Positions 2,364 through 53,501 of a stretch of 64,000 nt of DNA are shown in pieces. This stretch comes from Antedon mediterranea (taxonomy: Eukaryota; Animalia; Echinodermata), in assembly GCF_964355755.1 (NCBI RefSeq), contig NC_092675.1, positions 14,480,912 to 14,544,911 on the forward strand, written 5' to 3'. Each line of letters starts with the position of its first letter. Position 1 is the first letter of the stretch. The notes below the pieces were generated by a model. It ran no database searches and was not told where the DNA came from. It saw nothing but the letters and a program-made list of their open reading frames with translations. Both the position numbers and the translations under genes were made by a program.

Positions 2364-2411
<48 letters not shown>

Positions 2412-5917: not shown

Positions 5918-5949
<32 letters not shown>

Positions 5950-7208: not shown

Positions 7209-7249
<41 letters not shown>

Positions 7250-19407: not shown

Positions 19408-19412
19408 TGGAC

Positions 19413-25400: not shown

Positions 25401-28400
25401 AGCACTTTGATGTTTTTGTGTTACCAAGTTTCATCGAAATGCACAAAATGGTCTAAAACGTCTCCAAATGCGATTTGAAGCTATTCTAAGCACTTTGGTG
25501 TTTTTATGTTAACAAGTTTTTTCGAAAATCACAAAATGGTCTAAAACGTCTCCAAATGCGATTTGAAGCTATTCTAAGCACTTTGGTATTTTTATGTTAA
25601 CAAGTTTTTTCGAAAATCACAAAATGGTCTAAAACGTCTCCAAATGCGATTTTAAGCTATTCTAAACACTTTGGTATTTTTATGTTAATAAGATTTTTCG
25701 AAAATCACAAATTGGTTTAAAACGTCTCCAAATGCGATTTGAAGCTATTCTGTACACTTTGATGTTTTTATGTTAAAAAGTTTTTTCGAAAATCACAAAA
25801 TGGTCTAAAACGTCTCCAAATGCGATTTGAAGCTATTCTAAGCACTTTGGTATTTTGTGTGAAAAAGTTTTGTCGAAATTCTCAAAATGGTCTAAAACGA
25901 TTTATAATGTGATTTTAAGCATTTTGATGTTTTTGTGTAACCAAGTTTCATCGAAATGAACAAAATGGTCTAAAACGTCTCCAAATGCGATTTGAAGCTA
26001 TTCTAAGCACTTTGGTGTTTTTATGTTAACAAGTTTTTTCGAAAATCACAAAATGGTCTAAAACCTCTCCAAATAGGATTTGAAGCTATTCTAAGCACTT
26101 TGGTGTTTTTATGTTAACAAGTTTTTTCGAAAATCACAAAATGGTCTAAAACGTCTCCAAATGCGATTTGAAGCTATTCTAAGCACTTTGGTGTTTTTAT
26201 GTTAACAAGTTTTTTCGAAAATCACAAAATGGTCTAAAACGTCTCCAAATGCGATTTTAAGCTATTCTAAACACTTTGGTATTTTTATGTTAACAAGTTT
26301 TTTCGAAAATCACAAAATGGTCTAAAACGTCTCCAAATGCGATTTGAAGCTATTCTAAGCACTTTGGTGTTTTTATGTTAACAAGTTTTTTCGAAAACCA
26401 TAAAATGGTCTAAAACTTCTCCAAATGCGATTTGAAGCTATTCTAAGCACTTTGGTGTTTTTATGTTAACAAGTTTTTTCGAAAATCACAAAATGGTCTA
26501 AAACGTCTCCAAATACGATTTGACGCTATTCTAAGCTCTTTGGTGTTTTTATGTTAACAAGTTTTTTCGAAAATCACAAAATGGTCTAAAACGTCTCCAA
26601 ATGCGATTTGAAGCTATTCTAAGCACTTTGGTGTTTTGTGTAAAAAAGTTTTGTCTAAATGCTCAAAATGGTCTAAAACGTTTTTAAATACGATATTAAG
26701 CTATTTTGTGCTCTTTGATGTTTTTGTGTGAAAAGTGTTATCGAAATGCTCAAAATGGTCTAAAACGGTTTATAATGTGATTTTAAGCACTTTGATGTTT
26801 TTGTGTAACCAAGTTTCATCGAAATGCACAAATTGGTCTAAAACGTCTCCAAATGCGATTTGAAGCTATTCTAAGCACTTTGGTGTTTTGTGTGAAAAAG
26901 TTTTGTCGAAATGCTCAAAATGGTCTAAAACTTTTTTAAATACGATATTAAGCTATTTTGTGCTCTTTGATGTTTTTGTGTGAAAAGTGTTATCGAAATG
27001 CTCAAAATGGTCTAAAACGGTTTATAATTTGATTTTAAGCACTTTGATGTTTTTGTGTAACCAAGTTTCATCGAAATGCACAAAATGGTCTAAAACGTCT
27101 CCAAATGCGATTTGAAGCTATTCTAAGCACTTTGGTGTTTTTATGTTAACAAGTTTTTTCGAAAATCACAAAATGGTCTAAAACGTCTCCAAATACGATT
27201 TGAAGCTATTCTAAGCACTTTGGTGTTTTTATGTTAACACGTTTTTTCCAAAATCACAAAATGGTCTAAAACGTCTCCAAATGCGATTTGAAGCTATTAT
27301 AAGCAGTTTGGTGTTTTTATGTTAACAAGTTTTTTCGAAAATCACAAAATGGTCTAAAACGTCTCCAAATGCGATTTGAAGCTATTCTAAGCACTTTGGT
27401 GTTTTGTGTGAAAAAGTTTTGTCTAATTGCTCAAAATGGTCTAAAACATTTTTAAATACGATATTAAGCTATTTTGAGCTCTTTGATGTTTTTGTGTGAA
27501 AATTGTTATCGAAATGCTCAAAATGGTCTAAAACGGTTTATAATGTGATTCTAAGCACTTTGGTATTTTTATGTTAACAATTTTTTTCGAAAATCACGAA
27601 ATGGTCTAAAACGTCTCCAAATGCGATTTGAAGCTATTCTAAGCACTTTGGTGTTTTTAGGTTAACAAGTTTTTTGGAAAATCACAAAATGGTCTAAAAC
27701 GTCTCCAAATGCGATTTGAAGCTATTCTAAACCCTTTGGTGTTTTTATGTTGATAAGTTTTTTCGAAAATCACAAAATGGTCTAAAACGTCTCCAAATGC
27801 TATTTGAAGCTATTCTAAGCACTTTGGTGTTTTTATGTTAACAAGTTTTTTCGAAAATCACAAAATGGTCTAAAACGTCTCCAAATGCGATTTGAAGATA
27901 TTCTAAGCACTTTGGTGTATTTATGTTAACAAGTTTTTTCGAAAACCATAAAATGGTCTAAAACGTCTCCAAATGCGATTTGAAGCTATTCTAAGCACTT
28001 TGGTGTATTTATGTTAACAAGTTTTTTCGAAAATCACAAAATGGTCTAAAACGTCTCCAAATACGATTTGACGCTATTCTAAGCACTTTGGTGTTTTTAT
28101 GTTAACAAGTTTTTTTGAAAATCACAAGATGGTCTAAAACGTCTCCAAATGCGAATTGAAGATATTCTAAACCCTTTGGTGTTTTTATGTTGATAAGTTT
28201 TTTCGAAAATCACAAATTGGTCTAAAACGTCTCCAAATGCGATTTGAAGCTATTCTAAACACTTTGGTGTTTTTATGTTGACAAGTTTTTTCGAAAATCA
28301 CAAATTGGTCTAAAATGTCTCCAAATGCGATTTGAAGCTATTATAAGCACATCACAAAATGGTCTAAAACGTCTCCAAATGCGATTTGAAGCTATTCTAA

Positions 28401-31400
28401 GCACTTTGGTGTTTTTATGTTAACAAGTTTTTTCGAAAACCACAAAATGGTCTAAAACGTCTCCAAATGCGATTTGAAGCTATTCTAAGCACTTTGGTGT
28501 TTTTATGTTAACAAGTTTTTTCGAAAATCACTAAATGGTCTAAAACGTCTCCAAATACGATTTGACGCTATTCTAAGCACTTTGGTGTTTTTATGTTAAC
28601 AAGTTTTTTCGAAAATCACAAAATGGTCTAAAACGTCTCCAAATACGATTTGACGCTATTCTAAGCACTTTGGTGTTTTTATGTTAACAAGTTTTTTTCG
28701 AAAATCACAAAATGGTCTAAAACGTCTCCAAATGCGATTTTAAGCTATTCTAAACACTTTGGTATTTTTATGTTAATAAGTTTTTTCGAAAATCACAAAT
28801 TGGTCTAAAACGTCTCCAAATGCGATTTGAAGCTATTCTGTACACTTTGATGTTTTTATGTTAACAAGTTTTTTCGAAAATCACAACATGGTCTAAAACG
28901 TCTCCAAATGCTATTTGAAGCTATTCTAAGCACTTTGGTATTTTGTGTGAAAAAGTTTTGTGGAAATGCTTAAAATGGTCTAAAACGATTTATAATGTGA
29001 TTTTAAGCACTTTGATGTTTTTGTGTAACCAAGTTTCATCGAAATGCACAAAATGGTCTAAAACGTCTCCAAATGCGATTTGTAGCTATTCTAAGCACTT
29101 TGATGTTTTTGTGTAACCAAGTTTCATCGAAATGCACAAAATGGTCTAAAACGTCTCCAAATGCTATTTGAAGCTATTCTAAGCACTTTGGTGTTTTTAT
29201 GTTAACAAGTTTTTTCGAAAATCACAAAATGGTCTAAAACGTTTCCAAATACGATTTGACGCTATTCTAAGCACTTTGATGTTTTTATGTTAACAAGTTT
29301 TTTCGAAAATCACAAAATGGTCTAAAAGGTCTCCAAATGCGAATTGAAGATATTCTAAACCCTTTGGTGTTTTTATGTTGATAAGTTTTTTCGAAAATCA
29401 CAAATAGGTCTAAAACGTCTCCAAATGCGATTTGAAGCTATTCTAAACACTTTGGTGTTTTTATGTTGACAAGTTTTTTCGAAAATCACAAATTGGTCTA
29501 AAATGTCTCCAAATGCGATTTGAAGCTATTATAAGCACATCACAAAATGGTCTAAAACGTCTCCAAATGCGATTTGAAGCTATTCTAAGCACTTTGGTGT
29601 TTTTATGTTAACAAGTTTTTTCGAAAACCACAAAATGGTCTAAAACGTCTCCAAATGCGATTTGAAGCTATTCTAAGCACTTTGGTGTTTTTATGTTAAC
29701 AAGTTTTTTCGAAAATCACAAAATGGTCTAAAACGTCTCCAAATACGATTTGACGCTATTCTAAGCACTTTGGTGTTTTTATGTTAACAAGTTTTTTCGA
29801 AAATCACAAAATGGTCTAAAAGGTCTCCAAATACGATTTGACGCTATTCTAAGCACTTTGGTGTTTTTATGTTAACAAGTTTTTTTCGAAAATCACAAAA
29901 TGGTCTAAAACGTCTCCAAATGCGATTTTAAGCTATTCTAAACACTTTGGTATTTTTATGTTAATAAGTTTTTTCGAAAATCACAAATTGGTCTAAAACG
30001 TCTCCAAATGCGATTTGAAGCTATTCTGTACACTTTGATGTTTTTATGTTAACAAGTTTTTTTCGAAAATCACAAAATGGTCTAAAACGTCTCCAAATGC
30101 GATTTGAAGCTATTCTAAGCACTTTGGTGTATTTATGTTAACAAGTTTTTTCGAAAACCATAAAATGGTCTAAAACGTCTCCAAATGCGATTTGAAGCTA
30201 TTCTAAGCACTTTGGTGTTTTGTGTGAAAAAGTTTTGTCGAAATGCTCAAAATGGTCTAAAACGATTTATAATGTGATTTTAAGCACTTTGATATTTTTG
30301 TGTAACCAAGTTTCATCGAAATGCACAAAATGGTCTAAAACGTCTCCAAATGCGATTTGAAGCTATTCTAAGCACTTTGGTGTTTTAATGTTAACAAGTT
30401 TTTTCGAAAATCACAAAATGGTCTAAAACGTCTCCAAATGCCATTTTAAGCTATTCTAAGCACTTTGGTGTTTTTATGTTAACAAGTTTTTTCGAAAATC
30501 ACAAAATGGTCTAAAACGTCTCCAAATGCGATTTTAAGCTATTCTAAACACTTTGGTATTTTTATGTTAATAAGTTTTTTCGAAAATCAAAAATTGGTCT
30601 AAAACGTCTCCAAATGCGATTTGAAGCTATTCTGTACACTTTGATGTTTTTATGTTAACAAGTTTTTTCGAAAATCACAAAATGGTCTAAAACGTCTCCA
30701 AATGCGATTTGAAGCTATTCTGTACACTTTGATGTTTTTATGTTAACAAGTTTTTTCGAAAATCACAAAATGGTCTAAAACGTCTCCAAATGCGATTTGA
30801 AGCTATTCTAAGCACTTTGGTATTTTGTGTGAAAAAGTTTTGTCGAAATGCTTAAAATGGTCTAAAACGATTTATAATGTGATTTTAAGCACTTTGATGT
30901 TTTTGTGTTACCAAGTTTCATCAAAATGCACAAAATGGTCTAAAACGTCTCCAAATGCCATTTGAAGCTATTCTAAACACTTTGGTGTTTTTATGTTAAC
31001 AAGTTTTTTCGAAAATCACAAAATGGTCTAAAACGTCTCATAATGCGATTTGAAGCTATTCTAAGCACTTTGGTGTATTTATGTTAACAAGTTTTTTCGA
31101 AAACCATAAAATGGTCTAAAACGTCTCTAAATGCGATTTGAAGCTATTCTAAGCACTTTGGTGTTTTTATGTTAACAAGTTTTTTCGAAAATCACAAAAT
31201 GGTCCAAAACGTTTCCAAATACGATTTGACGCTATTCTAAGCACTTTGGTGTTTTTATGTTAACAAGTTTTTTCGAAAATCACAAAATGGTCTAAAACGT
31301 CTCCAAATGCGAATTGAAGATATTATAAACCCTTTGGTGTTTTTATGTTGATAAGTTTTTTCGAAAATCACAAATAGGTCTAAAACGTCTCCAAATGCGA

Positions 31401-33017
31401 TTTGAAGCTATTCTAAACACTTTGGTGTTTTTATGTTGACAAGTTTTTACGAAAATCACAAATTGGTCTAAAATGTCTCCAAATGCGATTTGAAGCTATT
31501 ATAAGCACATCACAAAATGGTCTAAAACGTCTCCAAATGCGATTTGAAGCTATTCTAAGCACTTTGGTGTTTTTATGTTAACAAGTTTTTTTCAAAAAAC
31601 CACAAAATGGTCTAAAACGTCTCCAAATGCGATTTGAAGCTATTCTAAGCACTTTGGTGTTTTTATGTTAACAAGTTTTTTCGAAAATCACAAAATGGTC
31701 TAAAACGTCTCCAAATGCGATTTGAAGCAATTCTAAGCACTTTGGTGTTTTTATGTTAACAAGTTTTTTCGAAAATCACAAAATGGTCTAAAACGTCTCC
31801 AAATGCGATTTGAAGCTATTCTAAGCACTTTGGTGTTTTTATGTTAACAAGTTTTTTCGAAAACCACAAAATGGTCTAAAACGTCTCCAAATGCGATTTG
31901 AAGCTATTCTAAGCACTTTGGTGTTTTAATGTTAACAAGTTTTTTCGAAAATCACAAAATGGTCTAAAACGTCTCCAAATGCCATTTGAAGCTATTCTAA
32001 GCACTTTGGTGTTTTTATGTTAACAAGTTTTTTCGAAAATCACAAAATGGTCTAAAACGTCTCCAAATGCGATTTTAAGCTACTCTAAACACTTTGGTAT
32101 TTTTATGTTAATAAGTTTTTTCGAAAATCACAAAATGGTCTAAAACGTCTCCAAATGCGATTTGAAGCTATTCTAAGCACTTTGGTATTTTGTGTGAAAA
32201 AGTTTTGTCGAAATGCTCAAAATGGTCTAAAACGTTTTTAAATACGATATTAAGCTATTTTGTGCTCTTTGATGTTTTTGTGTGAAAAGTGTTATCGAAA
32301 TGCTCAAAATGGTCTAAAACGGTTTATAATGTGATTTTAAGCACTTTGATGTTTTTGTGTAATCAAGTTTCATCGAAATGCACAAATTGGTCTAAAACGT
32401 CTCCAAATGCGATTTGAAGCTATTCTAAGCACTTTGGTGTTTTGTGTGAAAAAGTTTTGTCTAAATGCTCAAAATGGTCTAAAACGTTTTTAAATACGAT
32501 ATTAAGCTATTTTGTGCTCTTTGATGTTTTTGTGTGAAAAGTGTTATCGAAATGCTCAAAATGGTCTAAAACGGTTTATAATGTGATTTTAAGCACTTTG
32601 ATGTTTTTGTGTAACCAAGTTTCATCGAAATGCACAAATTGGTCTAAAACGTCTCCAAATGCGATTTGAAGCTATTCTAAGCACTTTGGTGTTTTTATGT
32701 TAACAAGTTTTTTCGAAAATCACAAAATGGTCTAAAACGTCTCCACTTTGGTGTTTTGTGTGAAAAAGTTTTGTCGAAATGCTCAAAATGGTCTAAAACG
32801 TTTTTAAATACGATATTAAGCTATTTTGTGCTCTTTGATGTTTTTGTGTGAAAAAGTTTTGTCGAAATGCTCAAAATGGTCTAAAACGATTTATAATGTG
32901 ATTTTAAGCACTTTGATGTTTTTGTGTTACCAAGTTTCTTCGAAATGCACAAAATGGTCTAAAACGTCTCCAAATGCGATTTGAAGCTATTCTAAGCACT
33001 TTGGTGTTTTTATGTTA
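19413..33017. repeat. 88-bp AT-rich satellite array with ~87-bp and ~78-bp variant monomers
   Basis: Monomer cacaaaatggtctaaaacgtctccaaatgcgatttgaagctattctaagcactttggtgtttttatgttaacaagttttttcgaaaat (88 nt; e.g. tcacaaaatg at 20881 and 20969). Variants start gctcaaaatggtctaaaacgtttttaaatacg and gctcaaaatggtctaaaacggtttataatgtg. Confidence 0.98.
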
Positions 33018-33287
33018 CGACCACATCGGACAGTATGATCACATCAGTCCAAGAGATGGCTGCTAAAAAAAATTGAACTAGCCAACAATTCTAAAACTAG
33101 CAAACTATGGCTAACTTACCAAATGTTAGAAGTTGCACGAGAACTCATCAAAGCAGATCGAACTGGGTCATGGAAAATGCATCTTCATGCTATGAATGAT
33201 TGTTTGCCAATATTTGCTGCAGCTGGACATTCTAATTATCTGAAGTCTGGTTATCTCAACCTCCAGAAAATTCAAAGGTTAGAAACA
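33018..33287 (+). pseudogene. Academ A transposase, fragment 1
   Basis: ELANNSKTSKLWLTYQMLEVARELIKADRTGSWKMHL...LPIFAAAGHSNYLKSGYLNLQKIQRLET. Contains the RTGxWxxHL...AAGHxNY motif of this family. Interrupted by the Polinton. Confidence 0.8.
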
Positions 33288-34094
33288 AGTAGTATAGTAC
33301 CCCGTTCAGTCCAATGAATAATTCATAAATTAATTAATGAATATTAATATATTAATTATGAGAGTACTATTTATGAATAATAAATATTTTAAAGGGTATT
33401 ATTTATGAATAAATTAATAAATTAATTAATTATGAGGGGTAGTTTTATGAATAATTAATATTTTAAAAGGTATTATTATGAATAAATGAATAAATCAATT
33501 AATTATGAAGGGTAGTTTTTATGAATAATTAAATGGTATTATTTATAAATAAATGAATTAATTAATTAGGTATGAGGGGGTAGTTTTATGAATATTTAAT
33601 AATTAAAATGGTATTATTTATGAACAAATTAATAAATTAATTTGTTTAGTGATCCCAGTCCAATGAAAAAGTAATGAGATGTTTTAATATTCATGAATAT
33701 TAATATATTTTTTATTAATATGAGGGTGTTTTAATGAATAATTAGTAAATGCGTTGGTTTTTATTCTCTGAATTAATAAATTAAGTATTATATATGTAAA
33801 TTGTATTTAAATGTTAAAAATCAGTCTGATCAAATAGAATCAATCTGATCAGTTCTATTTGTAACTGGATAGGCTACCCTCAGTAAAGATGGTAATAAAT
33901 AAATAAAAATTAAAAATAATGTGCTTACCTTCATTGAGAAGTCTGAAATCTACAAGTTTAATCAGCTTTGATTACTGCTTTTTTTTATGTTTGTATAAGA
34001 ACAAAATCATAACATCAATCCGCTGTCTTTCCATGGAATTAGTTTACAGTATGTGAGGCGTGGACAGGTTATTTTTTCAAATCCAGTGATTTTA

Positions 34095-34395
34095 GCGGGT
34101 ATGTGACGTCATCCGGCAATGAACCAATAAGATTCCTTATAAACATAGCGCTAATGAATTAATCTACCAATCATAATTCGTTGTTTTTTGTAAGCTTAGC
34201 GATCTCAGTCCAATGAATAAGTAATGAGATGTTTTAATATTCGTGAATATTAATATATTTTTATTAATATGAGAGTGTTTTAATGAATACTTAGTAATTG
34301 CGTTGGTATTTATTCTATGAATTATTGAATTAAGTATTATATATGTAAATTGTTTTATTTTTAACAGGGTACCTGATTTACTATATATATACAGA
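34095..34395 (+). promoter_or_regulatory. Putative Pol II promoter in the TIR (CRE/ATF TGACGTCA, CCAAT boxes, TATA-like tract)
   Basis: gtgacgtcatccggcaatgaaccaataag at ~34103-34131, second ccaat at ~34167, ctatatatatac at 34381, ~100 nt upstream of ATG 34485. Mirrored in the right TIR. Confidence 0.4.
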
Positions 34396-34484
34396 TTGTT
34401 AATTTGAAAACAGTACAGTTTTCCTGCTTTAGATTTTTAACATTTAGTCATCTGTTCTTTATCCTGCTGTTATTATCTATCAGG

Positions 34485-35171
34485 ATGAATTCTACTCTAC
34501 CGGTAGTAAGAGATTTTTTTCTTCTTCAAAAGGACAGAGTGCTGTATCTAATCGAGTAAAGATACACAAAGTTTCACATCAACACGGCACAGCAGTACCT
34601 TCAAATCGTATGACGTGTTTAATGGCGATTCAACCCCCACCTCCAATGAACGTTGATTTCAATAATGTATCTAATACTGAAGAAGACGAACATTATAGAT
34701 CGAGAATAATTTCTGAAAAGGAGAGGATTGTATACGACGACATGTCATCGGTAGTTGACTACCACCTATTTCTGGCAAGAAAAGCCGATGTAGAAGATGA
34801 GGTAGAAGATGAGGTGTTTGCGGAAGAGTACCTGAACCCTGTGTTGGAGGTGGAGATTAAGAAAGAAACTACCGAACTTGAGTACAAAGAAATAATGAGA
34901 ACAATTGAGAAGGTTTTCATAGAAGAATTTATATTCATTCTGAAGGACATGGTTGAACGTTATAACTTTCACGGCTCAAGATATGAACAACTCCTAACAT
35001 TTTTTCGACCAATTCTGGCATTGAAACTTGTGGACAATAGCCCTACCCATTTTTGAATGGGCGCTAAACTACTTTCATTTACGTTGTATCAATGTTGATG
35101 CGTTCGATAAAGCCATAAAGTTGATTACAAATGATTCAGAACTTTTTAATAAGATTCTTTACCAATTGTAA
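34485..35171 (+). pseudogene. Unknown Polinton accessory gene within left TIR (reconstructed ~225 aa), frameshifted
   Basis: ORF 34610-35056 continues after a 1-nt frameshift as EWALNYFHLRCINVDAFDKAIKLITNDSELFNKILYQL* (in frame in the right copy). Upstream ATG at 34485. AATAAA at ~35303. Confidence 0.7.
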
Positions 35172-35474
35172 TTTGTACAAATTAAAAATAATATCTTAAC
35201 ACTTTTTTAATTAATGTTACATAATTTTATAATTCTTATTTCTTTTCGGTAAATTTATTATTATTATGGTTGTAAATTATATTGAAATAGAATGTGTGTT
35301 AAAATAAAGGTTGTGTTTTTTCTTTTAAAAGCAACAACAACGAAAATGAAATTTGATATTTGCGTGTTATTTAAGTATTTGATTTATTTTTTTAATTTTC
35401 ATTTGGGTGAATGAGGGTAATGAATATGATTGAGTATTTAAGAAAAGTATATTAAGATCCTAAGCATCCTGATA

Positions 35475-38400
35475 TAGGCTATGGGGCATGGCCTTCTATC
35501 GTTTCATTTCGTGATCTCCTATCGGGAGGGGGGGGGGGAGAGAATAAAATTGGTATTACAATTATAACACAAATATAAACTGGCCGGTCCCGCTTGTAAA
35601 TTTTACGCGTCAACGAAATATGTTTGTTTTTATATGTATTTTATTGCGATATAGAAGATTTTTGTAGGTCAGTACAGGTCGCACAATTGACCAATCAAAA
35701 AATTTGTCTTTTAACTCATGGAGCTGTGCAACAGTAACTGTCCAATCAGATTCGCTTACACAGCGGGATACGGCTACTAGACAATCGTAAACAAACATGT
35801 GTTGTTCTTCTGGAGCGCGGAGGAAGATGTCATCTTCTGATGATCAAAAACGTTGTTATTGACACAATACATCTAATTCTGGGACAATATTAACATTCAC
35901 AGAAACCAAATGGAAAACTTATTTAATGTGTACAAAAAATCTAAGCGGCAATCAAAAGGAGTTTTGTAGCCGCAAATCCTTTTGAAAATATTGAGAGCTT
36001 ACCAATACTTGTTACCAATTCCTGACGACGCTTGATGTCATAAAAAGATGCTATCAATATTTCACTGATTGTAGCAAACAAAGGCGAGCAGGAAAATATG
36101 ACATAGAGGATGTTAATTCATCCAACAATGAAGAAGGTAAATTCTATTTTTTTTAATGATAGGTCTAGACTAGGCCCCTAGCCTAGCTAGTAGGCCTAGG
36201 CCTAGTAATTATAAATTAGTTCATATCATATCTGCCTTGCTAAAAAAAGCCTAGCTAGGTAGGTTGGCGGTGGGTAGTCTACAAAGTTTATTTTTTTAAT
36301 ATGTAGAGTAGGCTAGGCCTAGTATATAATTTTTTTTTAATATCTGGGCCAACATAAAATGAACCCATAATTACAATATGAATTAGGCCTAGCTAGGGTG
36401 GCCCCAGTATTATTGTGTAGTGGACCTAGTTTGATGGTACCTCCATCTTGGGAAAAAACATTTGCATTTTATTCAATGTGGTAATGCATGCAAACCTTGG
36501 CAAGTAGCCTCAGGCAAGGACAGAATGGACCAACCTGATGCTTTATGTTGTTATTTGAGACATATTATTTGAATTCTTGTACTGCAATATTAAATAGTGT
36601 ATAGATGATACTGAACTGATTATATTATTATATTTATTACACAAACATTTAGAATCATAAATATTAATTAGTATTCTTTTTTTTTACAGAAGAATTTCAA
36701 GGATTAGAGTCAACAGAAGAGTCAACAGAAGAGTCAACAGCAGAACCTGTTACTAAACGAAGGAGAGTTCTGCGATCACATGTAACAATTACACAAACTG
36801 CATAAAAAATGCTGAACGAAGTCGAAGAGTAGCCATCGGCTCACAAACAATTAAAATACCAAAAGCCGAACAGCAAATTCCAGAACAGTTGAAAACATTT
36901 TTATCTGCTAATCAAGTTCTTCTTTCAGATATGAAGCATGTGTGAAGCAGATTACCTCAAGGGAATACATGTATTCATAACATCATCATTATTATGCCAT
37001 TCTATTTCAGAATCAAATGGAAAAGTTTTAATCAAGAAGAGGCAGACATCAGAATGTTTCTGTATGCGAAGTATGCTGTAGACCATGGTGGTAAAGATAT
37101 TGTTACAATCAGCCCTGACACTGATGATGTTTTTATTATTGGATTGGCATTTTGCAAAAGTCTGCATGGCTCTCACCTATATTTCAATACTGGAAAAGAT
37201 GCTAATCTCCGAACAATTGATCTGCAGGCTATTCAGGAACATATTGGAAATGATGTTTCAAATGCATTAATTAGACTACATTGCTTCACAGGATGCGATT
37301 CAGTCAGCGCTTTTTTGGGAACGGTAAAGTGAAGGCAATGAAACTCGTAATGGAAAACTCTAATTTATGCATTCTTTGCATTGGGCAATTCTACCAGCGA
37401 ACTTTCAGATGAATTACTTTGTGATCTAGAAACATTTGTATGTAGGCTGTATGGTCACAAGAACCAATCTGTCAATGAAGTAAGGTATGCAATGTTCTCA
37501 ATGAATGTAAGAGCTGAAAATATGATGCCACCCAATAAAGATACTGTATATAAACATATTCAGCGTGCCAATTCTCAAGCTTCAATTCACAAAGCTAGTT
37601 TTATTCAACAACAAAATGCTCCATCTCCTGTTGGAAATGGGTGGAAGATGGCCGATAATAAACTCGTAATTGACTGGATGGAGAAGCAACCTGCTCTACA
37701 CAGCATTCTCGAATTGTCATCCTGGTCATGTAAAAAGTCAAAATGCAATGAAGGGGTTGCAAATGAAAAATGCTGTGTATCCTTAGGATTCTCTTGTACA
37801 GAATTATGCTCATGCAAAAACTGTAAAAATCTTCTTCATACATCAGATGTTTTTGAAATTGATGGTGATGATAGCGATGATGAGGAAGAGGGAGATGAAT
37901 TTGAGCAGGAAGAACTTTTTAGTGTAGTTTAAGTGTAATTTATGGTTTACAAATGTTCATTTTACTTGGTCTACATGATTTTAATGTAATTACCCTAAAT
38001 TCACATATTATAGGCCTATTTAGGTTAAACTATTTTGTAACTTAACTATTTTGTAACGTAACGGATGAACCATGAGAAAGTATAAATAAAGAACCCATGA
38101 GATGATAAGCAATATTAAGACACATGAGTATTATAAGAAACTTTGCTGTAATAATTTCATTTATTTGTTACTAATTGCTTATAATTCTATGTTGTACATC
38201 TACAATGAAAACAATAATGCAACATTTGATTTATTACTAATTGATTATAATTCTATGTTATGCATCCAATGAAAACAAAAAGTTGCAATTATATAGGAGA
38301 GATAATATTAATAAATATTTTGTGACAGCATAGTCATGAATTATAAAGATTGAAAATGCATCTTCTTTTCAGTGTGCTTAAATAAATATTAATTAAGGTT

Positions 38401-38609
38401 TACTAACAGATACATTTCTTACAAGGAAATTCGATTTTTTTACACCTAAAATTACTCTTATTGCGTAACTTTTGGAAGCGGGATCGGCTGAATTTGTGTT
38501 AACCTAATTATTAACTATAAACTGTGTGAATATCTTCCTCCCCCACCCCCGTTAGGAGATCACGAAATTCGTTTTCTAGGCCTCTTTTTGGCTCATGCCC
38601 CATAGCCTA
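35475..38609 (+). mobile_element. Academ DNA transposon B (3,135 bp, internally deleted), inserted in the Polinton integrase
   Basis: TIR TAGGCTATGGGGCATG...CATGCCCCATAGCCTA, continuing imperfectly ~80 bp (atttcgtgatctccta). 3-bp TSD ATA (35472-74, 38610-12). XPG-like and Cys-rich coding remnants. Confidence 0.88.
36800..37932 (+). pseudogene. Academ B XPG/FEN1-like nuclease plus C-terminal Cys-rich finger, frameshifted
   Basis: QEEADIRMFLY...SPDTDDVFII...LHCFTGCDSVSAF (PIN/H3TH-type motifs), then SCKKSKC...CCVSLGFSCTELCSCKNCKN and an acidic tail. Confidence 0.85.
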
Positions 38610-38787
38610 ATAATTTTGGTGGTGTGGACCGACTTTATCAAAATGTAAAAGACGATTTAAATATTACCAAGAGACAAGTTCAAGACTGACTGAACAAGCA
38701 ATACATTACACACATCCATTCAACGTAAATTCAAACAAAACTGGGTACTTGTAAGTGCTATTGATAAACAACGGGGAATGGATTTGG

Positions 38788-38972
38788 AAAAATAACGTGT
38801 ATAAAATTTGATTCAGACAAACTGTTTGCAAAATCAAAGGTTTGACTCTAGATTTCCAAAAATCAAAGGAAGTCAATTTTGAAATAGTTGGTATAGCATG
38901 GTACGAGGAATCGGACTGGAAAAAATAACAACAACTAATCCTAACAAAATAACCCGTAAACCAAAATCTCAC
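38788..38972 (+). pseudogene. C-terminal remnant of Polinton protein-primed DNA polymerase B
   Basis: KNNVYKI*..QTVCKIKGLTLDFQKSKEVNFE then, frameshifted, SMVRGIGLEKITTTNPNKITRKPKSH. Fits the KNYxY...CKxKG(I/F)TL...VNF...NPxKI.R pattern near the end of Polinton pPolB. Confidence 0.78.
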
Positions 38973-40059
38973 TTAATATTTATTTTTTATTATAAATTTG
39001 TAAAAGTAGTTAACCTATTTTAATTCATGGTAAATTTATTTTTCGAATTAATTTAATTTGTTTTATTTTCTGTTGAATTTTTATTATTATTATGTTTGTA
39101 AAGTGTATTGCAATAGATTTGTTTATTAAAATAAATTAATTATGTTTTGACTTAATTTATGTCAGTGTAAATTTGTAAAAGTAGTTTTCCTATTTTAATT
39201 CATGATAAGTTTATTTCTTGACTTTACTTAATTTTTTCTTTTCTGTTAAAGTAGAATGTGTATTAAAATACATTTTGTTTTTAACATCAACAACAAAAAA
39301 TGAAATTTTATCTTTGTGTGTTGTTTAATTCGTGTATGATGTTTTTCTAATTTATTTATACAAAAAAAAAAAAAAAAAACAAGTTTTTTTGTTAAATGTA
39401 ATTGCAAACATACATAATAAATGATTGCGATTAAAAATTATATTTTGTAAAGTGTATTACAATAGAATGTGTATTGAAATACATTTTGTTTTTAACATCA
39501 ACAACAAAAATGAAATTTGATCTTTGCGTGTTGTTTAACTCGTGTATGAAGTTTTTGAATTTGTTAAATGTAATTGCAAACATACATATTAAATGATTGT
39601 GACTAAAATTATTCTGGTTACTTTGTATTTTTTTATTTTAAACAGTAGTATTTTTAACAGTAGTTATATTTTATATATAAAAAGTAATATTACAAAAATA
39701 AACATACAAAATTCATAAAGCATAGACTTATTAAATTTAAATACAATTTCTTTATTTCAAAATGAATTTCATTTTATACGTGTTTTCAATTTTAAATCTT
39801 TTAAGAAAGACACAATACGTACTGATATAAGAACGTACACAAAAGAAAACAAATTTGAGACGCACGGTTTGTAACGACACTTTCAATAAGAAGGCATATT
39901 ATAAATGTATTTTTACCAAATTTATAAAGTAAATGCTTATTATTGAGAAATATACATTTTAGATAAATGATAACACATCTAAAATTAATTCGAGAGATCA
40001 ATACAATATGGTGTTCATAATAATTTGTTTTGATGACTAGAGGAAACATCTGAAGACAT

Positions 40060-40623
40060 TCAAAGAAAACCAAGCGTTAACACCATACCAGTCACTAAGA
40101 ATGCTACTACTACTCTGAAAAAAACATCTCCCTTCCTACACAGAAACAAATTATGAACGAAAATAAAAAATAAAAAAATAAAAATAATTATTAAACAAAA
40201 CACGCGCATTATGAATAAAATGAATAATTTAAGAATATTTGTTAAACTACCCACGAACAAACTAACCGATTCATCGTCATTACGAAGTTCAAATAACGAA
40301 AACCTTTCCTTGAAAAATCCACAGGAGACACGTTTTACATTTTCTAACAGCAATTCAGTGTCACATTGTGTCGCAACACATGTACATACAACGAGTCCTG
40401 TCACAAGTCTGCCGACATCTATTTTTCTATCGCTCATCATTTGTTCTAATACATAATACAGCGCTTCCAAAGAAATATCTTTACACAATTCTAACACATT
40501 AAAATTGTTTTCCAACTCTTTACAATCACGAATAGTACTCTGGAGGATGGGTGAATCCAAAACAACTAACCCCGTCAATTTATATTCAATGTATGCTAAA
40601 ACTACTTCCTCTAAATCAACCAT
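40060..40623 (-). CDS. Intronless Bcl-2-family-like protein (187 aa from ATG 40623) with hydrophobic C-terminus; Polinton cargo
   Basis: BH4-like DLEEVVLAYIEYKL (human BCL2 DNREIVMKYIHYKL), BH3-position ILQSTIRDCKELENNF, BH1-like VLEQMMSDRKIDVGRLV (BAX DMFSDGNFNWGRVV), weak BH2, then hydrophobic stretches. Order and spacing fit the fold. Confidence 0.72.
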   Translation of the reverse strand: MVDLEEVVLAYIEYKLTGLVVLDSPILQSTIRDCKELENNFNVLELCKDISLEALYYVLEQMMSDRKIDVGRLVTGLVVCTCVATQCDTELLLENVKRVSCGFFKERFSLFELRNDDESVSLFVGSLTNILKLFILFIMRVFCLIIIFIFLFFIFVHNLFLCRKGDVFFRVVVAFLVTGMVLTLGFL

Positions 40624-41304
40624 AACGCTCGACAAAACAAATGATAATGGATGTAATTACCAAGAAAGTTACAACTTAAAACCTTTATTTTTGTTTTTAA
40701 AAAGAAAAAAAGTAACATAGAAACTAATTTTGTCAGGAAATGTGTTTTTATTATTTATGTGATTTATTTGTGTTTATAAAGTTACAACATTAACATTTAA
40801 TTTGGTAAAAAAATGTGAATATACGGAGCCGATTGTAATTTTTAATCCTTAGTATAGTGAGAGATTTTATAAACAAAAAAAGAGCGGACGGAAATTAAAG
40901 ATTGCAGATTAGACATATAGAAATGGATTGAAATTGGAAATCTACATGATCAAAGAAAAGAAACCCATTGTTCCGACAGAAGCTAATGACATTTACAAAG
41001 GATGACAAACTTTGAATAGAGTAAATACCGTATAACATAATTAAATTTTGTCAAGATAGTTGTCAAAAATAAATAAAATATATTATACTGAATTTACTTT
41101 GTACATTTATTTAATTTAGGCCGTAATTAGGTTTGTTGTTCATTTATGATTGTGACAAAAAAAAATACATACTAATAAAACAGCTATAGGCCTATAAAAA
41201 AAGTAAAAAAAAAAATAATGATTCAGTGTTATAATTTTATTTACCTGTCATTATGTTAATAAAACATATTCTAAATTTAATTTATGTCATGTTAGATATA
41301 TTTT

Positions 41305-41540
41305 CAAAGACATTTGTTACATACAAATAATTTTGTAAAGAAATGTGTTACATAAGATAAATTTGTTAAGAAGTTTGTTTCATAAAAATATTTGTGAAGA
41401 TAAATTTGTTACATAAAAATTATTTTTGTAAAGAAATTTGTTACGTAAATTTATTTTTTACAAGAAGTTTGTAACAGAAAATTATTTTGCAAAGAATTAG
41501 TTGCATCAATTGATTTTATCAAACGTATGTAACATAAAAA
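41305..41540. repeat. Degenerate short AT-rich tandem repeat (atttgttacataa / ttttgtaaagaa) next to the right TIR
   Basis: About 8-10 imperfect copies of aatttgttacataa-like and ttttgtaaagaa-like units. Confidence 0.6.
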
Positions 41541-41543
41541 AAA

Positions 41544-43660
41544 ATCAAATTTCATTTTCGTTGTTGTTGCTTTTAAAAGAAAAAACACAACCTTTATTTT
41601 AACACACATTCTATTTCAATATAATTTACAACCATAATAATAATAAATTTACCGAAAAGAAATAAGAATTATAAAATTATGTAACATTAATTTAAAAAGT
41701 GTTAAGATATTATTTTAAATTTGTACAAATTACAATTGGTAAAGAATCTTATTAAAAAGTTCTGAATCATTTGTAATCAACTTTATGGCTTTATCGAACG
41801 CATCAACATTGATACAACGTAAATGAAAGTAGTTTAGCGCCCATTCAAAATGGGTAGCGCTATTGTCCACAAGTTTCAATGCCAGAATTGGTCGAAAAAA
41901 TGTTAGGAGTTGTTCATATCTTGAGCCGTGAAAGTTATAACGTTCAACCATGTCCTTCAGAATGAATATAAATTCTTCTATGAAAACCTTCTCAATTGTT
42001 CTCATTATTTCTTTGTACTCAAGTTCGGTAGTTTCTTTCTTAATCTCCGCCTCCAGCACAGGGTTCAGGTACTCTTCCGCAAACACCTCATCTTCTACAT
42101 CGGCTTTTCTTGCCAAAAATAGGTGGTAGTCGAGTCAACTACCGATGACGTGTCGTCGTATACAATCCTCTCCTTTTCAGAAATTATTCTCGATCTATAA
42201 TGTTCGTCTTCTTCAGTATTAGATATATTATTGAAATCAACGTTCATTGGAGGTGGGGGTTGAATCACCATTAAACACGTCATACGATTTGAAGGTACTG
42301 CTGTGCCGTGTTGATGTGAAACTTTGTGTATCTTTACTCGATTAGATACAGCACTCTGTCCTTTTGAAGAAGAAAAAACTCTCTTACTACCGGATTGATT
42401 TTAAGTAGAATTCATCCTGATAGATAATAACAGCAGGATAAAGAACAGATGACTAAATGTTAAAAATCTAAAGCAGGAAAACTGTACTGTTTTCAAATTA
42501 ACAATCTGTATATATATAGTAAATCAGGTACCCTGTTAAAAATAAAACAATTTACATAATATATAATACTTAATTCAATAATTCATAGAATAAATACCAA
42601 CGCAATTACTAAGTATTCATTAAAACACTCTCATATTAATAAAAATATATTAATATTCACGAATATTAAAACATCTCATAACTTATTCATTGGACTGAGA
42701 TCGCTAAGCTTACAAAAACAATGAATTATGATTGGTAGATTAATTCATTAGGGCTATGTTTATAAGGAATCTTATTGGTTATTTGCCGGATGACGTCACA
42801 TACCCGCTAAAATCACAGGATTAGAAAAAATAACCTGTCCACGCCTCACATACTGTAAACTAATTCCATGGAAAGACAGCGGATTGATATTATGATTTTG
42901 TTCTTATACAAACATAAAAAAAGCAGTAATCAAAGCTGATTAAACTTGTAGATTTTATTCATTAAACTATACATCAGACTTCTCAATGAAGGTAAGCACA
43001 TTCTTTTTAATATGTATTTATATTATATATATATATTTATTTATTACCATCTTTACTGAGGGTAGCCTATCCAGTTCCAAATAGAACTGATCAGATTGAT
43101 TCTATTTAATCAGACTGATTTTTAATATTTAAATACAATTTAGATATATAATACTTAATTTATTAATTCAGAGAATAAAAACCAACGCATTTACTAATTA
43201 TTCATTAAAACACCCTCATATTAATAAAAAATATATTAATATTCATGAATATTAAAACATCTCATTACTTTTTCATTGGACTGAGATCGCTAAACAAATT
43301 AATTTATTCATTTCTTCATAAATAATACCATTTTAATTATTAAATATTCATAAAACTACCCCCCTCATACCTAATTAATTAATTCATTTATTTATAAAAA
43401 ATACTCTTTAAAATATTAATTATTCATAAAAACTACCCTTCATAATTAATTAATTTATTCATTTATTCATAATAATCCCTTTAAAATATTAATTATTCAT
43501 AAAAACTACCCCTCATAATTAATTAATTTATTAATTTATTCATAAATAATACCCTTTAAAATATTTATTATTCATAAATAGTACTCTCATAATTAATATA
43601 TTAATATTAATTAATTAATTTATAAATTATTCATTGGACTGAACGGGGTACTATACTACT
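41544..43660 (-). repeat. Right terminal inverted repeat of the Polinton (~2.12 kb)
   Basis: Reverse complement of 33288-35357. Confidence 0.93.
41730..42415 (-). pseudogene. Second copy of the unknown TIR gene (early stop and mid-gene frameshift)
   Basis: ORFs 42095-42283 and 41730-42116 are nearly identical to 34610-35171. Upstream in-frame MNST*NQSGSKRVFSSSKGQSAVSNRVKIHKVSHQHGTAVPSNR from ATG 42415. Confidence 0.7.
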
Positions 43661-43666
43661 GAAACA

Positions 43667-43854
43667 GAACATCCATCCGTTTTCTATAAGTTCAATAATG
43701 GATTTCATGTTGTTCGACGCACCAATAAATACTGGGCCGAACAGACTTTGATGCGATCTCTGAAAAGTTCAGGTGGTCTAACTAGAGGAAGTGGTATGAC
43801 AGAGCATCAAAGAGCTGTGTGGACAATGTATGCACCTATATCTGCTGCCTACAA
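43667..43854 (+). pseudogene. Academ A transposase, fragment 2
   Basis: In frame with fragment 1 once the Polinton is removed: LET-EHPSVFYKFNNGFHVVRRTNKYWAEQTLMRSLKSSGGLTRGSGMTEHQRAVWTMYAPISAAYN. Confidence 0.85.
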
Positions 43855-45513
43855 CATAGTTGCCATTTCTGGAATTATTATGCTTTTTTGGCATTATTTG
43901 GAGGCCCACGGCATCTGGCATAATGCCGCGGCATTATTTAGCCGTTTTTAGCATAATCTGGCATAATTTTGTGTTTTTTGAACAACCAAAAAAAATAATA
44001 TACTGTACCACAGAACAAAAATAAAATATTTTGTTAATACATATCACCTTACACAATATCATATCGTACAAAACAGATCTGTTCGGGTTTTCCGTACAAT
44101 AATTCTTCCATCCTTTCGTTTCGGACTTAATCGACTCTTCGGATACTGGAAGGCTGCTCGAAAACTACCGTGTGTGCGATATAGGCAGCACAACAAATCC
44201 GAAGAGGCTACCTATTGGCCAATTATGTTGTTCTATTTCAGAGACCATGCAGGTTATTGGATCCCCAGATATAGAGACAATTGAACGAAAACACATTATG
44301 AAAGGGGTTTTGTTTTTACAGTTCTTAATTATAAGCGGCCACACCCCTACCTCAACCCTTAAAATGGCAATTTCCGGTAACTAGAAGCTCTAATTTTAAA
44401 AAGAATTTCTTCTAGAGAATTTGTTTTCCATATTTCAAATTATGTTCCATTTGCATCGTCGTAGCTACCCTATATTTCCAAATGTTCTTCACCTCTCAGT
44501 GACCATGATGGGGCGAGGTCCAAGGGACTCTTATACATTTTTATTTAAAATTAAGTGCAATTTCCGGCCATCTAGCAGCTCTATTTTTCAAATTTGTTTT
44601 ACCTCAGCCCCAACCATGGTGGGGCTGAGGTCCTGGAAACACTTAATATACTGTATATTTTTATTTCCTATTTTAAATTATAATTGGCACTTTCAAAACT
44701 ATCATGGGCTAAGATCCTGGAGGTACTAATAAATGTATTTTATATTTGAAATTAAGTGGCATTTCCGGCCATTGAGAAGCTCTATTTTTTTCAAATTTTC
44801 TTACCTCAGCCCCAACCATGAGGTCCTGGAGACACAATTAATATATATTTTGATTTCCTATTTTAAATTATAATTGCCATTTTCAAACTATGGTGGGCTA
44901 AGATCATGGAGACACTAATAAATATATTTTTATTTCATATTTTAAATTAAGTGCCATTTCCGGCCATCGAGTAGCTGTATTTTTCCAAATTTTCTTATCA
45001 ACCATGGTGGGGCTGAGGTCCTGGAGACACTCAAAATAATTTTTTTTATTTCCTATTTTAAATTATAATTTCCATTTTCTAATTATGGTGGCTATAAGAT
45101 CCTTTCATTTTTTAAATTAAGTGCAAAGATCCCGGCCATCGAGCAGCTCTCCTATTTCAGCTAAAAAATTATAAATTTCCATGGCTGTAACAGGTTTTTG
45201 TTTTTTTTTTTAGGGTGGGGAGAGGGGTGGGGGTTGATGTTGGTGTCATTTGCAATTACCATTTTCGCACCCCAGATATTTAGAATTATTAGTTATTACT
45301 CACAAAACTAAAAATATAAATTTTGTACGACATGGGGATACAATTTTAGGCCCTATTTTGTGTCAGTTGGGGTTTTACAAACGTTTATTAGACATACACC
45401 CGTTGGTGGCGCTGTTTAGGGCCACATTTTGGGGCTCTGGCATTATTTTTCCCAATCTGGCATTATTTGAGACAGGATACGGCATAATTTAAATTTTATC
45501 GCTGGCAACGCTG
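43855..45513. mobile_element. Non-autonomous hAT-like DNA transposon (1,659 bp) with internal ~200-bp tandem repeats
   Basis: 8-bp TSD GCCTACAA (43847-54, 45514-21). Short imperfect TIR CATAGTTGCCA...TGGCAACGCTG. Subterminal ggcat(t/a)attt repeats at both ends. No transposase. Confidence 0.85.
44360..45160. repeat. ~200-bp imperfect tandem repeat (about 4 copies) inside the hAT element
   Basis: aagtg...tttccggccat recurs at ~44553, 44754, 44949 and 45119. Hairpin cctcagcccca-accatgg-tggggctgagg is complete in the first unit and partial in others. Confidence 0.75.
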
Positions 45514-45521
45514 GCCTACAA

Positions 45522-46940
45522 TTACGCCATGCAAGACTTCAGTAACAGAGTGTACAGTACACTGTTTCAGAGGTTTCTAGTAGTATCTCAATCTTGAGAT
45601 CTCTGCTTAGAGGAGGTAATGAAGTATGAACTTTCACCTTATCCTCCATTTTTGTTTGAAGGAAAGCACATTTTGAGGAAGGCCGAGAAAGCGCAGCTTT
45701 TAAGTGCTATACGAGAACATTTTATTTCATTAGATTCTGCTGTGATTCAGTCTATTCCAAAGATAGATCACTATGTTCTTGACGGAGGTTCACTTTTACA
45801 TCGATTGAAATGGAAGGAAGTACGTACAGCTCAATTGCGAACACCTATGCATCTTTGACGTATTGTCTATATGGCAGGGCCACTGTTGTCTTCGATAGGT
45901 ACAATAAAGGCCCTAACACAAAGGACAGCACTCATCTGCGTCGTAAAACTCAGATTGTAAATAAGGTCAACATATCAGATGGAACCACATTTGTTGGTAA
46001 GAAGGATGATTTCTTATCGAATGATTTCAACAAGCAGGCTCAAATTTACCTTATTGCAAACTGCTTGCGTCAGCAAGGCTGTCAAGTCATTCATGCTGAA
46101 GGTGATGCAGATGTAGATATAGTGAGAGCAGCCATTACCATGTCATCTTACACGTCAACAACCCTTATTGGAGAAGACACAGATTTGTTGGTCTTGCTAT
46201 TACATCACGCAGTAAAAGATTGCAACGATCTTTACTTTCGTTCTGACAAAGACAAACAGAAATCTTTTGTCTACAACATCAAAGTTCTAAAAAAGAGATT
46301 TGGTGATGATGTATGCTATGATCTGCTGTTTTTCCATGCATTCTCAGGCTGTGACACTACTTCAAGAATCTTTGGGGTTGGCAAGAGATCTTTATTCCAA
46401 AAAGTACACAAAGGCGATTCTATATTACATGCTTGTGCAAACATTTTTTGTACACCAAAGATAGATCCAGTGACTATAGAAGAAACTGGGTGTAAAGCAA
46501 TGATGTCCTTGTTTAATGGGACCCAGTCGCTCGAATCTTTACGGTACAGTTATCTCTGTAAGAAGGTGGCCTCATCAAAGACTTTTGTAAAGCCCGAAAG
46601 ACAACCTCCTACAAGCTCTGCTACAAATCAACATTCTCGGAGGACCTACTTGCAAGTTATGCAGTGGATCGTCAAGGGCCACGTCATGGATCCAACTGAA
46701 TGGGGTTGGAGTGCAAAAGAGGACAGACTTGTTCCAATCATGATGGACATTAATCCGGCACCACCAGACTCACTGCTCAAGATTATTCGATGCAACTGCT
46801 CTACAGGATGCAGCACATTGAAGTGTACCTGCAGAAAAAATGCACTCGAATGCACCACCGCTTGTGGACCTTGTCAAAGTGATAACTGTGAAAACATGAA
46901 CCAAGAGCCAGTTTCAGACGATGATGAAATCGAAGATTAA
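45522..46940 (+). pseudogene. Academ A, fragment 3: end of transposase region, XPG-like nuclease and Cys8 finger
   Basis: YAMQDFSNRVYST, then probable internal deletion, LFQRFLVVSQS*DLCLEEVMKYELSPYPP...VLDGGSLLH, frameshift, AEGDADVDIV...GEDTDLLVLL...HAFSGCDTTSRIFGVGK...CNCSTGCSTLKCTCRKNALECTTACGPCQSDNCEN. Confidence 0.88.
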
Positions 46941-50889: not shown

Positions 50890-53501
50890 AGTTCTCAACT
50901 CTACCACAAGCCAAGAAATGTCCCATATTCAATGAGGGACAAGGTCGAAAAAAAGCTTGGACGACTACAAAATCAAGAGATTATTAGCCCTGTGAAATAC
51001 AGCGAATGGCCAGCTCCCATTGTACCTGTACAGAAGAAGTCAGGGCAAGTTAGAATCTGTGGTGAATTTAAAGTTACAATTAACCCTGTGATGAAAGTAG
51101 AACAGTACCCATTACCTAAAATAGAAGATATCTTTGCATCTCTAGCAGGAGGTCAGAAATTTACAAAAATTTACCTTAAACAAGCATATTTACAGATGGA
51201 AGTGGAAGACACTTCAAAGGAACTGTTAACTATTAATACGCATAAATGGTTATTTAGATATAACCGACTTCCATTTGGTGTAGCCTCAGCTCCTGCAATC
51301 TGGCAAAGAGCGATGGACCAGGTACTGCAAAATGTACCCTTTACATCTTGCATATTGGATGATATGATGGCGGAAAAACAACTGAGGAACACTTTAAAAA
51401 CTTGGACACAGCTCAGTTTTAAAGAGATTAGAGAAATACAACTTAAGAGTAAATCGTGAGAAATGTGGGTTTTTCAAAGAAGACATCACATGCTGTGGTC
51501 ATGTGATAACTGAAAAAGGGTTACAGAAATCCCCTGACAAGATCCATGCAGTTATCAATGCGCCAAAACCTGACAACAAACAGCAAATGCGATCATTCTT
51601 GGGTTTAATAAATTACTATCGTAGGTTTTTGCCAAACTTATCGTCCATAGTCGCACCCTTGAATGGACTTTTACAAAATGAAAAAAACTTGGAAATGGAC
51701 ACATTCATGTGATGAAGCTTTTAAAGCGGTCAAAGAACTTATAACTTCAGATCAAGTTCTATGCCACTATAATCCTGAACTAACAGTTAAAATAGCCTGT
51801 GATGCATCGCCATACGGCCTTGGTAGCGTTCTTTCACATATTATGCCAGACGGAAGTGAAAGACCAATTGCATTTGCTTCTCGCTTCTTAACAAAAGCTG
51901 AAAAGGGCTATGCCCAAATAGACAAGGAAGCATTAGGACTTTATTGGGGAATACAAAAGTTTCATACTTACCTGCATGGCTGACATTTTACTTTGGTTAC
52001 AGATCATAAGCCGCTAGTAAGCATCTTGCATCAACAAAAGTCAATTCCAGCAATGACTGCTGCAAGACTACAAAGATATGCCCTTTACCTATCTGGACAT
52101 ACATATGATATCGAATATCACAACACGCACGCTCATGGGAATGCTGATGGATTGAGTATAGATTGCCTATACCTACAGATGTGATTGATTACGTCGATGA
52201 GGCATCTACATTCTACACCTCCCAGATTGAAAGGTTGCCGATATCAAGTAACAGAAATACGGAAAGAAACACAGAAAGATCAGATTCTGTCACACGTATT
52301 AGATACTGTTTTAAAAGGGACTAACAAACTTCCTGACAGAACTTACTTGCCATCAAGGGTGTTTAATGTGGGGAAATCGAGTACTAATTCCAGATAGACT
52401 TCGTGCTGCTATTCTTAATGAAATACATGATGGACACATTGGGATTGTTAAGATGAAAAACTTAGCTCGCTCTTACATCTGGTGGCCTAACATTGATTGC
52501 GAAATTGAACAAGTTTGTAAATATTGTATCGGTTGCCAGCAAACAAGCAAAATGCTAAAATCCGGACCGGTAGACCCTTGGGAGTGGCCATCTGCCCCAT
52601 GGGATCGCTTACATATAGATTTTGCAGGGCCGTTCATGAACTCTATGTTTTTAATTGTTGTTGACGCCCATAGCAAATGGCCAGAAGTTTATCCAATGAG
52701 ATCTACTACAGCACAACTGACTATTGAGAAATTGCGAATTATGTTTAGCCAATATGGTATTCCCAGACAAATTGTATCGGACAACGGTGCTCAATTTAAG
52801 TCGGAGGAATTTACAGATTTCATGAAAGCAAATGGTATTTGACATACCACATCATCCCCATATCACCCCAGAACAAATGGCCTAGCAGAGAGATTTGTGC
52901 AAACGTTTAAATTGGCCATTAAGCAATCAAGAGGAAACAGTTGTCGTTCACTACACAGCAACATCTGAGTACATTTCTGTTTAAGTACAGAACAACTCAT
53001 ACACTTACCAAGGAAAGACCTGCAAAATTACTCTACGGACGCAATCTACGAACACGTTTGGATCTTTTGAAACCGGATCTAACAGCTACTGTCTTGAAAG
53101 GTCAAGATCGTATGCAGTTTGCAAAACATTGTGGAACCAGCATCCGAGAGTTTCAACCCGGACAATCAGTAATGGTCCGTGATTATCGTAACACAAACCA
53201 GAAATGGATATCAGCTCAAATACATGGAAAAACTGGTCCACTATCTTACACAGTTGACACAGGACTTGGAGGAACACTATGGAGGCGTCATGCTGATCAA
53301 CTACACCCAACTATGGTGAATGTCACTCCTACAGAAATATTCACCCCGGATGACCATGTTCCAGAAATACTAAATCCAACAGACGCTCCACAATCAGATA
53401 ACCTTACTCGAAATGTTAACACCGACACACCTGTTACAACTGGCAGCGCATCTCTTACACAAGAAACTGCACCCATACGTCGATATCCAAAAAAGAAATA
53501 A
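50890..53501 (+). pseudogene. Gypsy pol remnant: reverse transcriptase, RNase H, integrase
   Basis: RT: SEWPAPIVPVQKKSGQVRICG, YNRLPFGVASAPAIWQ, CILDD. RNase H: ACDASPYGLGSVL, YAQIDKEAL, VTDHKPL. Integrase: HDGHIG..CKYCIGC, LHIDFAGP, VSDNGAQF, NGLAERFV. Protease not seen. Confidence 0.93.

Follow-up and report, generated by a model that had tools for sequence, protein, structure and literature searches.

The locus considered here raises the question of whether a Polinton/Maverick element that has lost most of its genes carries a gene of Bcl-2 descent and, if so, whether that gene is maintained by selection or simply carried along. In the initial annotation of the window, by which we mean the whole 64,000-nucleotide stretch analysed, a stop-free ORF of 187 aa was described between Polinton TIRs, and this ORF is real: it runs from 40623 to 40060 on the minus strand, and an ATG-ORF as long was found in 0/2000 base shuffles of 38600-41540. 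The reading that we prefer, with a probability of roughly 0.55, is that of a viral-type Bcl-2 accessory gene, inherited from a parent adintovirus or Maverick and predicted to act against cell death, that is now a passenger in a helper-dependent, amplified Polinton of 10.4 kb.

The element and its surroundings

The features on which the argument draws are as follows, in the order of the window.

33282-33287, no strand: left TSD, GAAACA, 6 bp, identical to 43661-43666
33288-35361, plus strand: left TIR, 2,074 bp, starting AGTAGT, with 73-75-bp subrepeats inside
34610-35056, plus strand: orphan ORF of the TIR, 148 codons from its ATG, the mirror copy in the right TIR being frameshifted mid-gene
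35420-35474, plus strand: first codons of the Polinton integrase up to DPKHP, a motif common to 12 Maverick-type integrases, with an in-frame stop
35475-38609, plus strand: nested DNA transposon, 3,135 bp, with 16-bp TIRs (TAG..CTA) and a 3-bp TSD (ATA), splitting the integrase
38613-38789, plus strand: remaining integrase remnant, profile positions 13-74 of 347 in two frames, without the catalytic core
40060-40266, minus strand: codons 120-187 and stop, comprising a T-rich hydrophobic part (codons 120-164, 55% T) and a tail-anchor-like end (165-187)
40255-40260, minus strand: position of an A/T run whose length varies, and is greater, in other copies, and which is frame-shifting in two of the three alleles spelled out
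40267-40623, minus strand: codons 1-119, likely a Bcl-2 helical domain, with BH4-like residues 4-17, G71-R72 of BH1, six predicted helices and a BH2 without W/GGW
41540-43660, minus strand: right TIR, 2,121 bp, finishing ACTACT
43661-43666, no strand: right TSD, GAAACA, the element sitting inside a gene of another transposon

The Polinton copy thus delimited is 10,373 bp long (33288-43660), and its (AGT)2//(ACT)2 TIR ends, its 6-bp TSD and its Maverick-type rve integrase, of which a remnant is left, place it among the Polintons/Mavericks, the end motif and TSD length being as given in the available text of PMC8097293. The two TIRs are 94.8% identical and we infer that the insertion is fairly young, because they differ by 33 mismatches and 79 gap columns over 2,137 columns. 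No intact integrase, pPolB, ATPase, protease or capsid ORF is found among the window ORFs of at least 100 aa, and Pfam gave no match in 12 read-through frames that cover the element apart from its nested insertion and right TIR. The TIR-flanked Polinton context originally proposed holds in the form of a non-autonomous derivative, one that has lost nearly all core genes and would need a helper element to move.

The integrase had been called broken, and indeed only its first ~75 codons are left, in two frames and with an in-frame stop. They were found with a profile built from 12 Maverick-type integrases drawn from 17 metagenome loci, a reference member of the type being rve+chromo by Pfam, and the matches have E-values of 0.0055 (profile positions 13-45) and 0.54 (41-74). 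A scan of viral contigs for integrase motifs returned four chance loci and then none. The transposon nested in the integrase, which we take to be Academ-like, holds ORFs of 112 and 146 codons. A broken pPolB had also been reported, of which no remnant was detected in the element, both tests being weak for pPolB: the profile was made from two sequences only, presumed to be pPolB on the motifs that they carry, and the reference polymerase itself (L034:2099-5449) went undetected by Pfam. A degraded gene-like stretch at 40790-41050 on the plus strand, upstream of and opposite to the Bcl-2-like ORF and matching neither Pfam nor PolB, may be what was taken for pPolB. The description of the Bcl-2-like ORF as the sole gene-like one without stops proves to be loose, as the left TIR keeps its 148-codon ORF and the nested insertion keeps its two. 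For the TIR ORF the searches found no family and no relatives, and the reading frames of its two TIR copies disagree at both ends.

The Polinton is itself inserted in a gene of another transposon (33020-33287 and 43661-46940), the frame of which continues across the TSD at either end of the element. This host transposon, again presumably Academ-like, has a 376-aa ORF (45810-46940) with a distant relationship to those of the nested insertion. There are thus three layers of nesting, the host transposon holding the Polinton and the Polinton holding the nested insertion. Directly to the left of the element lie two large satellites, one at 1-19407 with a purine-rich unit of 19/42 bp and one at 19413-32745 with an 88-bp unit and higher-order repeats. 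Elsewhere in the window there are frameshifted Gypsy-like pol fragments at 50932-53501, the first with a Pfam RVT_1 match, and a near-palindromic 21-bp tandem array at 62782-63998, which gives rise to a spurious 193-aa ORF (62888-63469) and to most of the inverted-repeat matches.

Affinity of codons 1-119

That the ORF is of Bcl-2 descent in codons 1-119 is very probable, and the original assignment to the family stands at that strength, on several signals that are individually weak and that concur: Pfam, the ESM Atlas, the BH4 match and the helix pattern. The best Pfam family is the one that had been proposed, PF00452 (E 0.01 with the full protein, 0.0033 with residues 1-135), which aligns with residues 37-99; its score of 16.8-18.4 bits stays under the gathering threshold of 31.4 bits. 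The BH4-like start noted earlier is borne out, with 8/15 residues of the segment at 4-17 identical to a fetched Bcl-2, and with a score, against a profile built from 120 Bcl-2/Bcl-xL proteins of vertebrates and herpesviruses, that no more than 28 and 14 of 5000 shuffles attained; the BH4 family of Pfam gave no match to the ORF. The DVGR segment, which had been read as BH1-like, does fall in the BH1 region of the Pfam alignment, where G71-R72 are kept and the N-W of NWGR is replaced. The weak BH2 that had been annotated is positional only, for as the 187-aa protein contains no Trp the W..GGW motif is absent and BH2 is not conserved. With a BH1 that lacks N-W and a BH2 that lacks W, the groove may bind differently or no longer bind.

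The top match in the ESM Atlas is a Bcl-2 cluster (0.92, 217/256 features), Bcl-2 is named in 21/30 matches and Bcl-2 together with BH4 in five, and clusters of pox B6, E1B-19K and M11L are among the matches listed. The recognition value is 1671, where the tool's own note counts anything below 2300 as weak, and hhalign returned a probability of 4%. AF2 models from the single sequence have a mean pLDDT of 56 and 41, which is low confidence, and in these low-confidence models the order of the predicted helices fits alpha1-6 of Bcl-2 and residues 42-114 align with residues 104-185 of Bcl-xL (Z 4.5-5.2, rmsd 3.3-3.7). Foldseek on these models put the Bcl-2 family in 19/41 of the rows shown, none of them a significant fold match, and the Bcl-2 family is well represented in the PDB. 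A wider fold search with the same low-confidence models had no Bcl-2 chain among the best 50 rows, and a viral library was uninformative too. We infer a Bcl-2 fold for codons 1-119 from these results taken together.

It would seem unlikely that the ORF is instead an orphan helical Polinton gene whose likeness to Bcl-2 is due to chance, or a protein of Bcl-2 fold with a non-apoptotic role. Such an explanation is favoured by the fact that no match passes a curated threshold and no fold search is significant, by the loss of the canonical NWGR and GGW, and by the shuffled proteins, 4-10% of which attain an Atlas score of 0.9. It has to contend, however, with four kinds of evidence (Pfam, Atlas, BH4 and helix pattern) that agree on one family and do so in the correct order along the chain.

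Relatives of the ORF were sought widely. None was found at E<=0.01 among 183 candidates from a set of 5.8 billion sequences, none among 1.84 billion representatives or by exact look-up, and none in viral and metagenome contigs or among PDB sequences, nor did the sequence sets or the viral and metagenome contigs hold a relative linking the ORF to a known adintovirus Bcl-2. A MAFFT alignment was rejected, as it misplaced the tail of the ORF onto BH1, and identity is too low for a phylogeny. A Bcl-2 profile matched 0/224 ORFs in the 17 Maverick-type metagenome loci. A BIR/IAP gene, another anti-apoptotic cargo of the group, is present on one Maverick-type metagenome contig (L040:461-886, minus strand; Pfam E 9.5e-21).

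The tail and the other copies

The ORF has a good start context. Words resembling TATA, and AATAAA words, lie at plausible distances, which has little meaning at 25% GC. Downstream of the domain, the hydrophobic C-terminal segments that had been described are present in the window copy, although the first is largely compositional, with 3906/5000 shuffles of the same T-rich DNA also hydrophobic. Residues 165-187 are hydrophobic in the window copy and their frame differs in other copies.

The part after codon 119 could also be read as a splice structure, with codons 120-164 as a retained or real intron near the intron that splits BH2 and codons 165-187 as a tail-anchor exon, the gene then being a genomic capture and not a retrocopy. 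A donor-like GTTAGT stands in phase 0 after codon 119 (40266), the stretch that follows is T-rich with AG words at 40138-40136 and 40134-40132, and frame-shifting indels are confined to it; furthermore the intron that animal Bcl-2 genes have after the BH2 Trp codon, as given in the available part of PMC7527217, maps within a few residues of the site in a structural register of low confidence. We nevertheless consider a spliced gene very unlikely, as GTTAG is present four times in the ORF and the first of the AG words does not keep the phase, the supposed last exon varies as much as the "intron", with 6/7 of its variants non-synonymous, and its 3-nt deletions fall in a 3-nt repeat. The T-rich stretch is, moreover, free of stops, as are only 227/5000 shuffles of it, and intact Mavericks are given as intronless in the sections of PMC8097293 available. 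Contigs of run X7, which is RNA by guess only, traverse the ORF without a joint, which counts neither for nor against splicing or expression.

Part of the stretch was found in 17/18 of the runs listed, which come from 9 studies. The summed depth of contigs over the ORF is about 13,000-29,000 in X1 (organism A) and 37,000-107,000 in X5 (organism B), single divergent contigs have depths of mostly 136-313 (X1) and 72-94 (X5), and in runs X8 and X10 the ORF is at a depth of 6-57. There are many copies, probably hundreds, contig depth itself being no copy number. In X8 and X10, contigs run past 41049 into an inverted copy of the integrase start, which suggests that the arms are longer in other subfamilies than in the window copy, whose own junction is covered by a deep X1 contig. 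Loose ends at 39080/39117 resemble cross-mapped TIR contigs and were not accepted as evidence of a junction.

At codon ~123 the A/T run is longer in the other copies, with 12, 13 and 20 extra letters spelled out, and loose ends in X1 and X5 point to still longer runs. The frame is shifted by the forms with 13 and 20 extra letters, which reach a stop 2-3 codons past the run, one subfamily has a further 8-letter difference downstream of it (as judged from gap counts), and low-depth contigs skip 108-172 nt inside the ORF. Because the run lengths shift the frame in other copies, it is the Bcl-2 domain that is the unit common to the copies, and the 187-aa protein of two segments is particular to the window copy; the ORF as first described is open there, but its length is copy-specific.

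Variation among the copies over the ORF was compared with 40 of the 42 variant rows, with classes assigned by hand and the small-share runs X11-X17 left out; X10 is without coverage of most of the domain in this comparison. In codons 1-120 the variants segregating among the other copies are three synonymous and seven non-synonymous, where neutrality would give a synonymous share of 21-27% (P 0.35-0.54). When divergent contigs are included, 6/17 are synonymous (P 0.12-0.30), a count that leaves out two adjacent rows changing one codon jointly and one stop row (contig depth 4). The comparison thus gives a synonymous share near neutral, whilst codons 1-120 are less variable than the tail, with 13/33 variants in 64% of the ORF length (p=0.003), or 20/40 when the 7 divergent-contig rows are added (p=0.046). 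No indel is listed in codons 1-120, where ~5 would be expected at the mean rate of the region; this deficit is suggestive at most, since the homopolymer density of the domain is about a third of that of its flanks (0.56 against 1.4-1.9 per 100 bp).

The boundaries, the TSD, the integrase remnant, the open ORF and the many variant copies are established for the element. On the preferred reading a parent adintovirus or Maverick would have borne a divergent Bcl-2 as an accessory gene that kept host cells alive, and an internal deletion would then have taken the core genes and left the TIRs, the integrase start and the Bcl-2 gene, the last perhaps surviving through its closeness to a TIR. Helper elements would have amplified the derivative, the copies of which would drift largely neutrally, with the C-terminal tail presumably altered by slippage of the A/T run. 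From what is known of viral Bcl-2 biology, the hydrophobic tail would attach the product to mitochondrial or ER membranes, and the product would sequester Bax/Bak or BH3-only proteins, so that the cell is kept alive during replication of the element; an anti-apoptotic role is predicted by analogy with these viral proteins. Inheritance from a parent adintovirus would be a simpler origin than the captured retrocopy proposed initially.

That the gene is now a passenger is likely on the sequence comparison, as the 3/10 synonymous variants of codons 1-120, the out-of-frame run lengths and the internal skips all fit it. The lower density of variants in codons 1-120 and the lack of a listed indel there do, however, run counter to pure drift, and they are among the points that speak for a selected survival cargo, in which actively copied masters keep a working Bcl-2 domain that protects the (germ) cells carrying or amplifying them. 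The slippery T run would on this account yield a hydrophobic tail in any frame and changes in its length would be tolerated. Also in its favour are the retention of the domain, the least variable part of the ORF, while core genes were deleted, the stops of the shifted frames shortly past the run, which leave the domain intact, and the good start context. Against it, the synonymous share is not raised, even with divergent contigs, and the low homopolymer density weakens the indel deficit, and so a selected cargo is in our view doubtful, although a possibility of some weight. The "selfish survival cargo" of the initial annotation accordingly finds no support in the copy comparison, with a synonymous share near neutral and frame-shifting runs elsewhere, the numbers being small. 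More doubtful still is the widest version of the idea, an amplified helper-dependent Polinton satellite in at least two animal species that has shed its core genes and uses a working Bcl-2 as a selfish survival device, with the T run as an any-frame anchor. Were selection to be shown, it would mean that a transposon satellite manipulates the survival of host cells and spreads many extra copies of Bcl-2 in an animal germ line.

Comparison with known systems

Anti-apoptotic genes in Polinton-like viruses, which the initial annotation had mentioned, are already published. Homologues of Bcl2 and IAP have been observed in adintoviruses (Starrett et al. 2021, PMC8502044, in the part available), where Fig. 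S2 has three Bcl2 labels, one of them beside an integrase label, and anti-apoptotic genes are noted for mammal-associated adintoviruses in the accessible text of PMC11071296. With Bcl-2 cargo in adintoviruses already known, the window gene alone is likely, from its sequence, to be a new and very divergent member. What has been described less is its setting in a non-autonomous, apparently strongly amplified derivative with long TIRs, where a putative anti-death gene is the chief one left. Literature searches found no account of a non-autonomous amplified Polinton keeping Bcl-2, an absence that is weak as the searches were insensitive.

Like the adintoviruses of PMC8502044, as far as its available text describes them, the window has a likely Bcl2 homologue within an animal Polinton-type element; unlike them the element is non-autonomous, has 2.1-kb TIRs and is without capsid, ATPase, protease or detectable PolB, a comparison of gene content and not of sequences. 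With the vertebrate Mavericks, in the sections available of Barreat and Katzourakis 2021 (PMC8097293), it shares the (AGT)2//(ACT)2 ends, the 6-bp TSD and accessory ORFs near the ends. Intact vertebrate Mavericks are there given as 12.7-24.6 kb long with 7-8 core ORFs and TIRs of 46-1,447 bp, whereas the window element is ~7.2 kb without its nested insertion and has longer TIRs.

The predicted protein resembles the viral Bcl-2 mimics E1B-19K, BHRF1 and F1L (Kvansakul et al. 2017, PMC5691641, in the portion available) in its low identity to cellular Bcl-2, its compactness and its putative membrane association. E1B-19K and BHRF1 keep their BH1 and BH2 motifs according to the same portion, whereas the window protein keeps only the G-R of BH1; it has no detectable sequence kinship with any of the viral mimics. 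A transposon with domains of apoptosis regulators has a further parallel in the giant LTR retrotransposons of planarians named Burro, with BCL2-like and BIR motifs (reviewed in PMC6431247, in the part accessible), although in Burro these belong to the polyprotein of a retroelement and the window gene stands alone in a DNA element.
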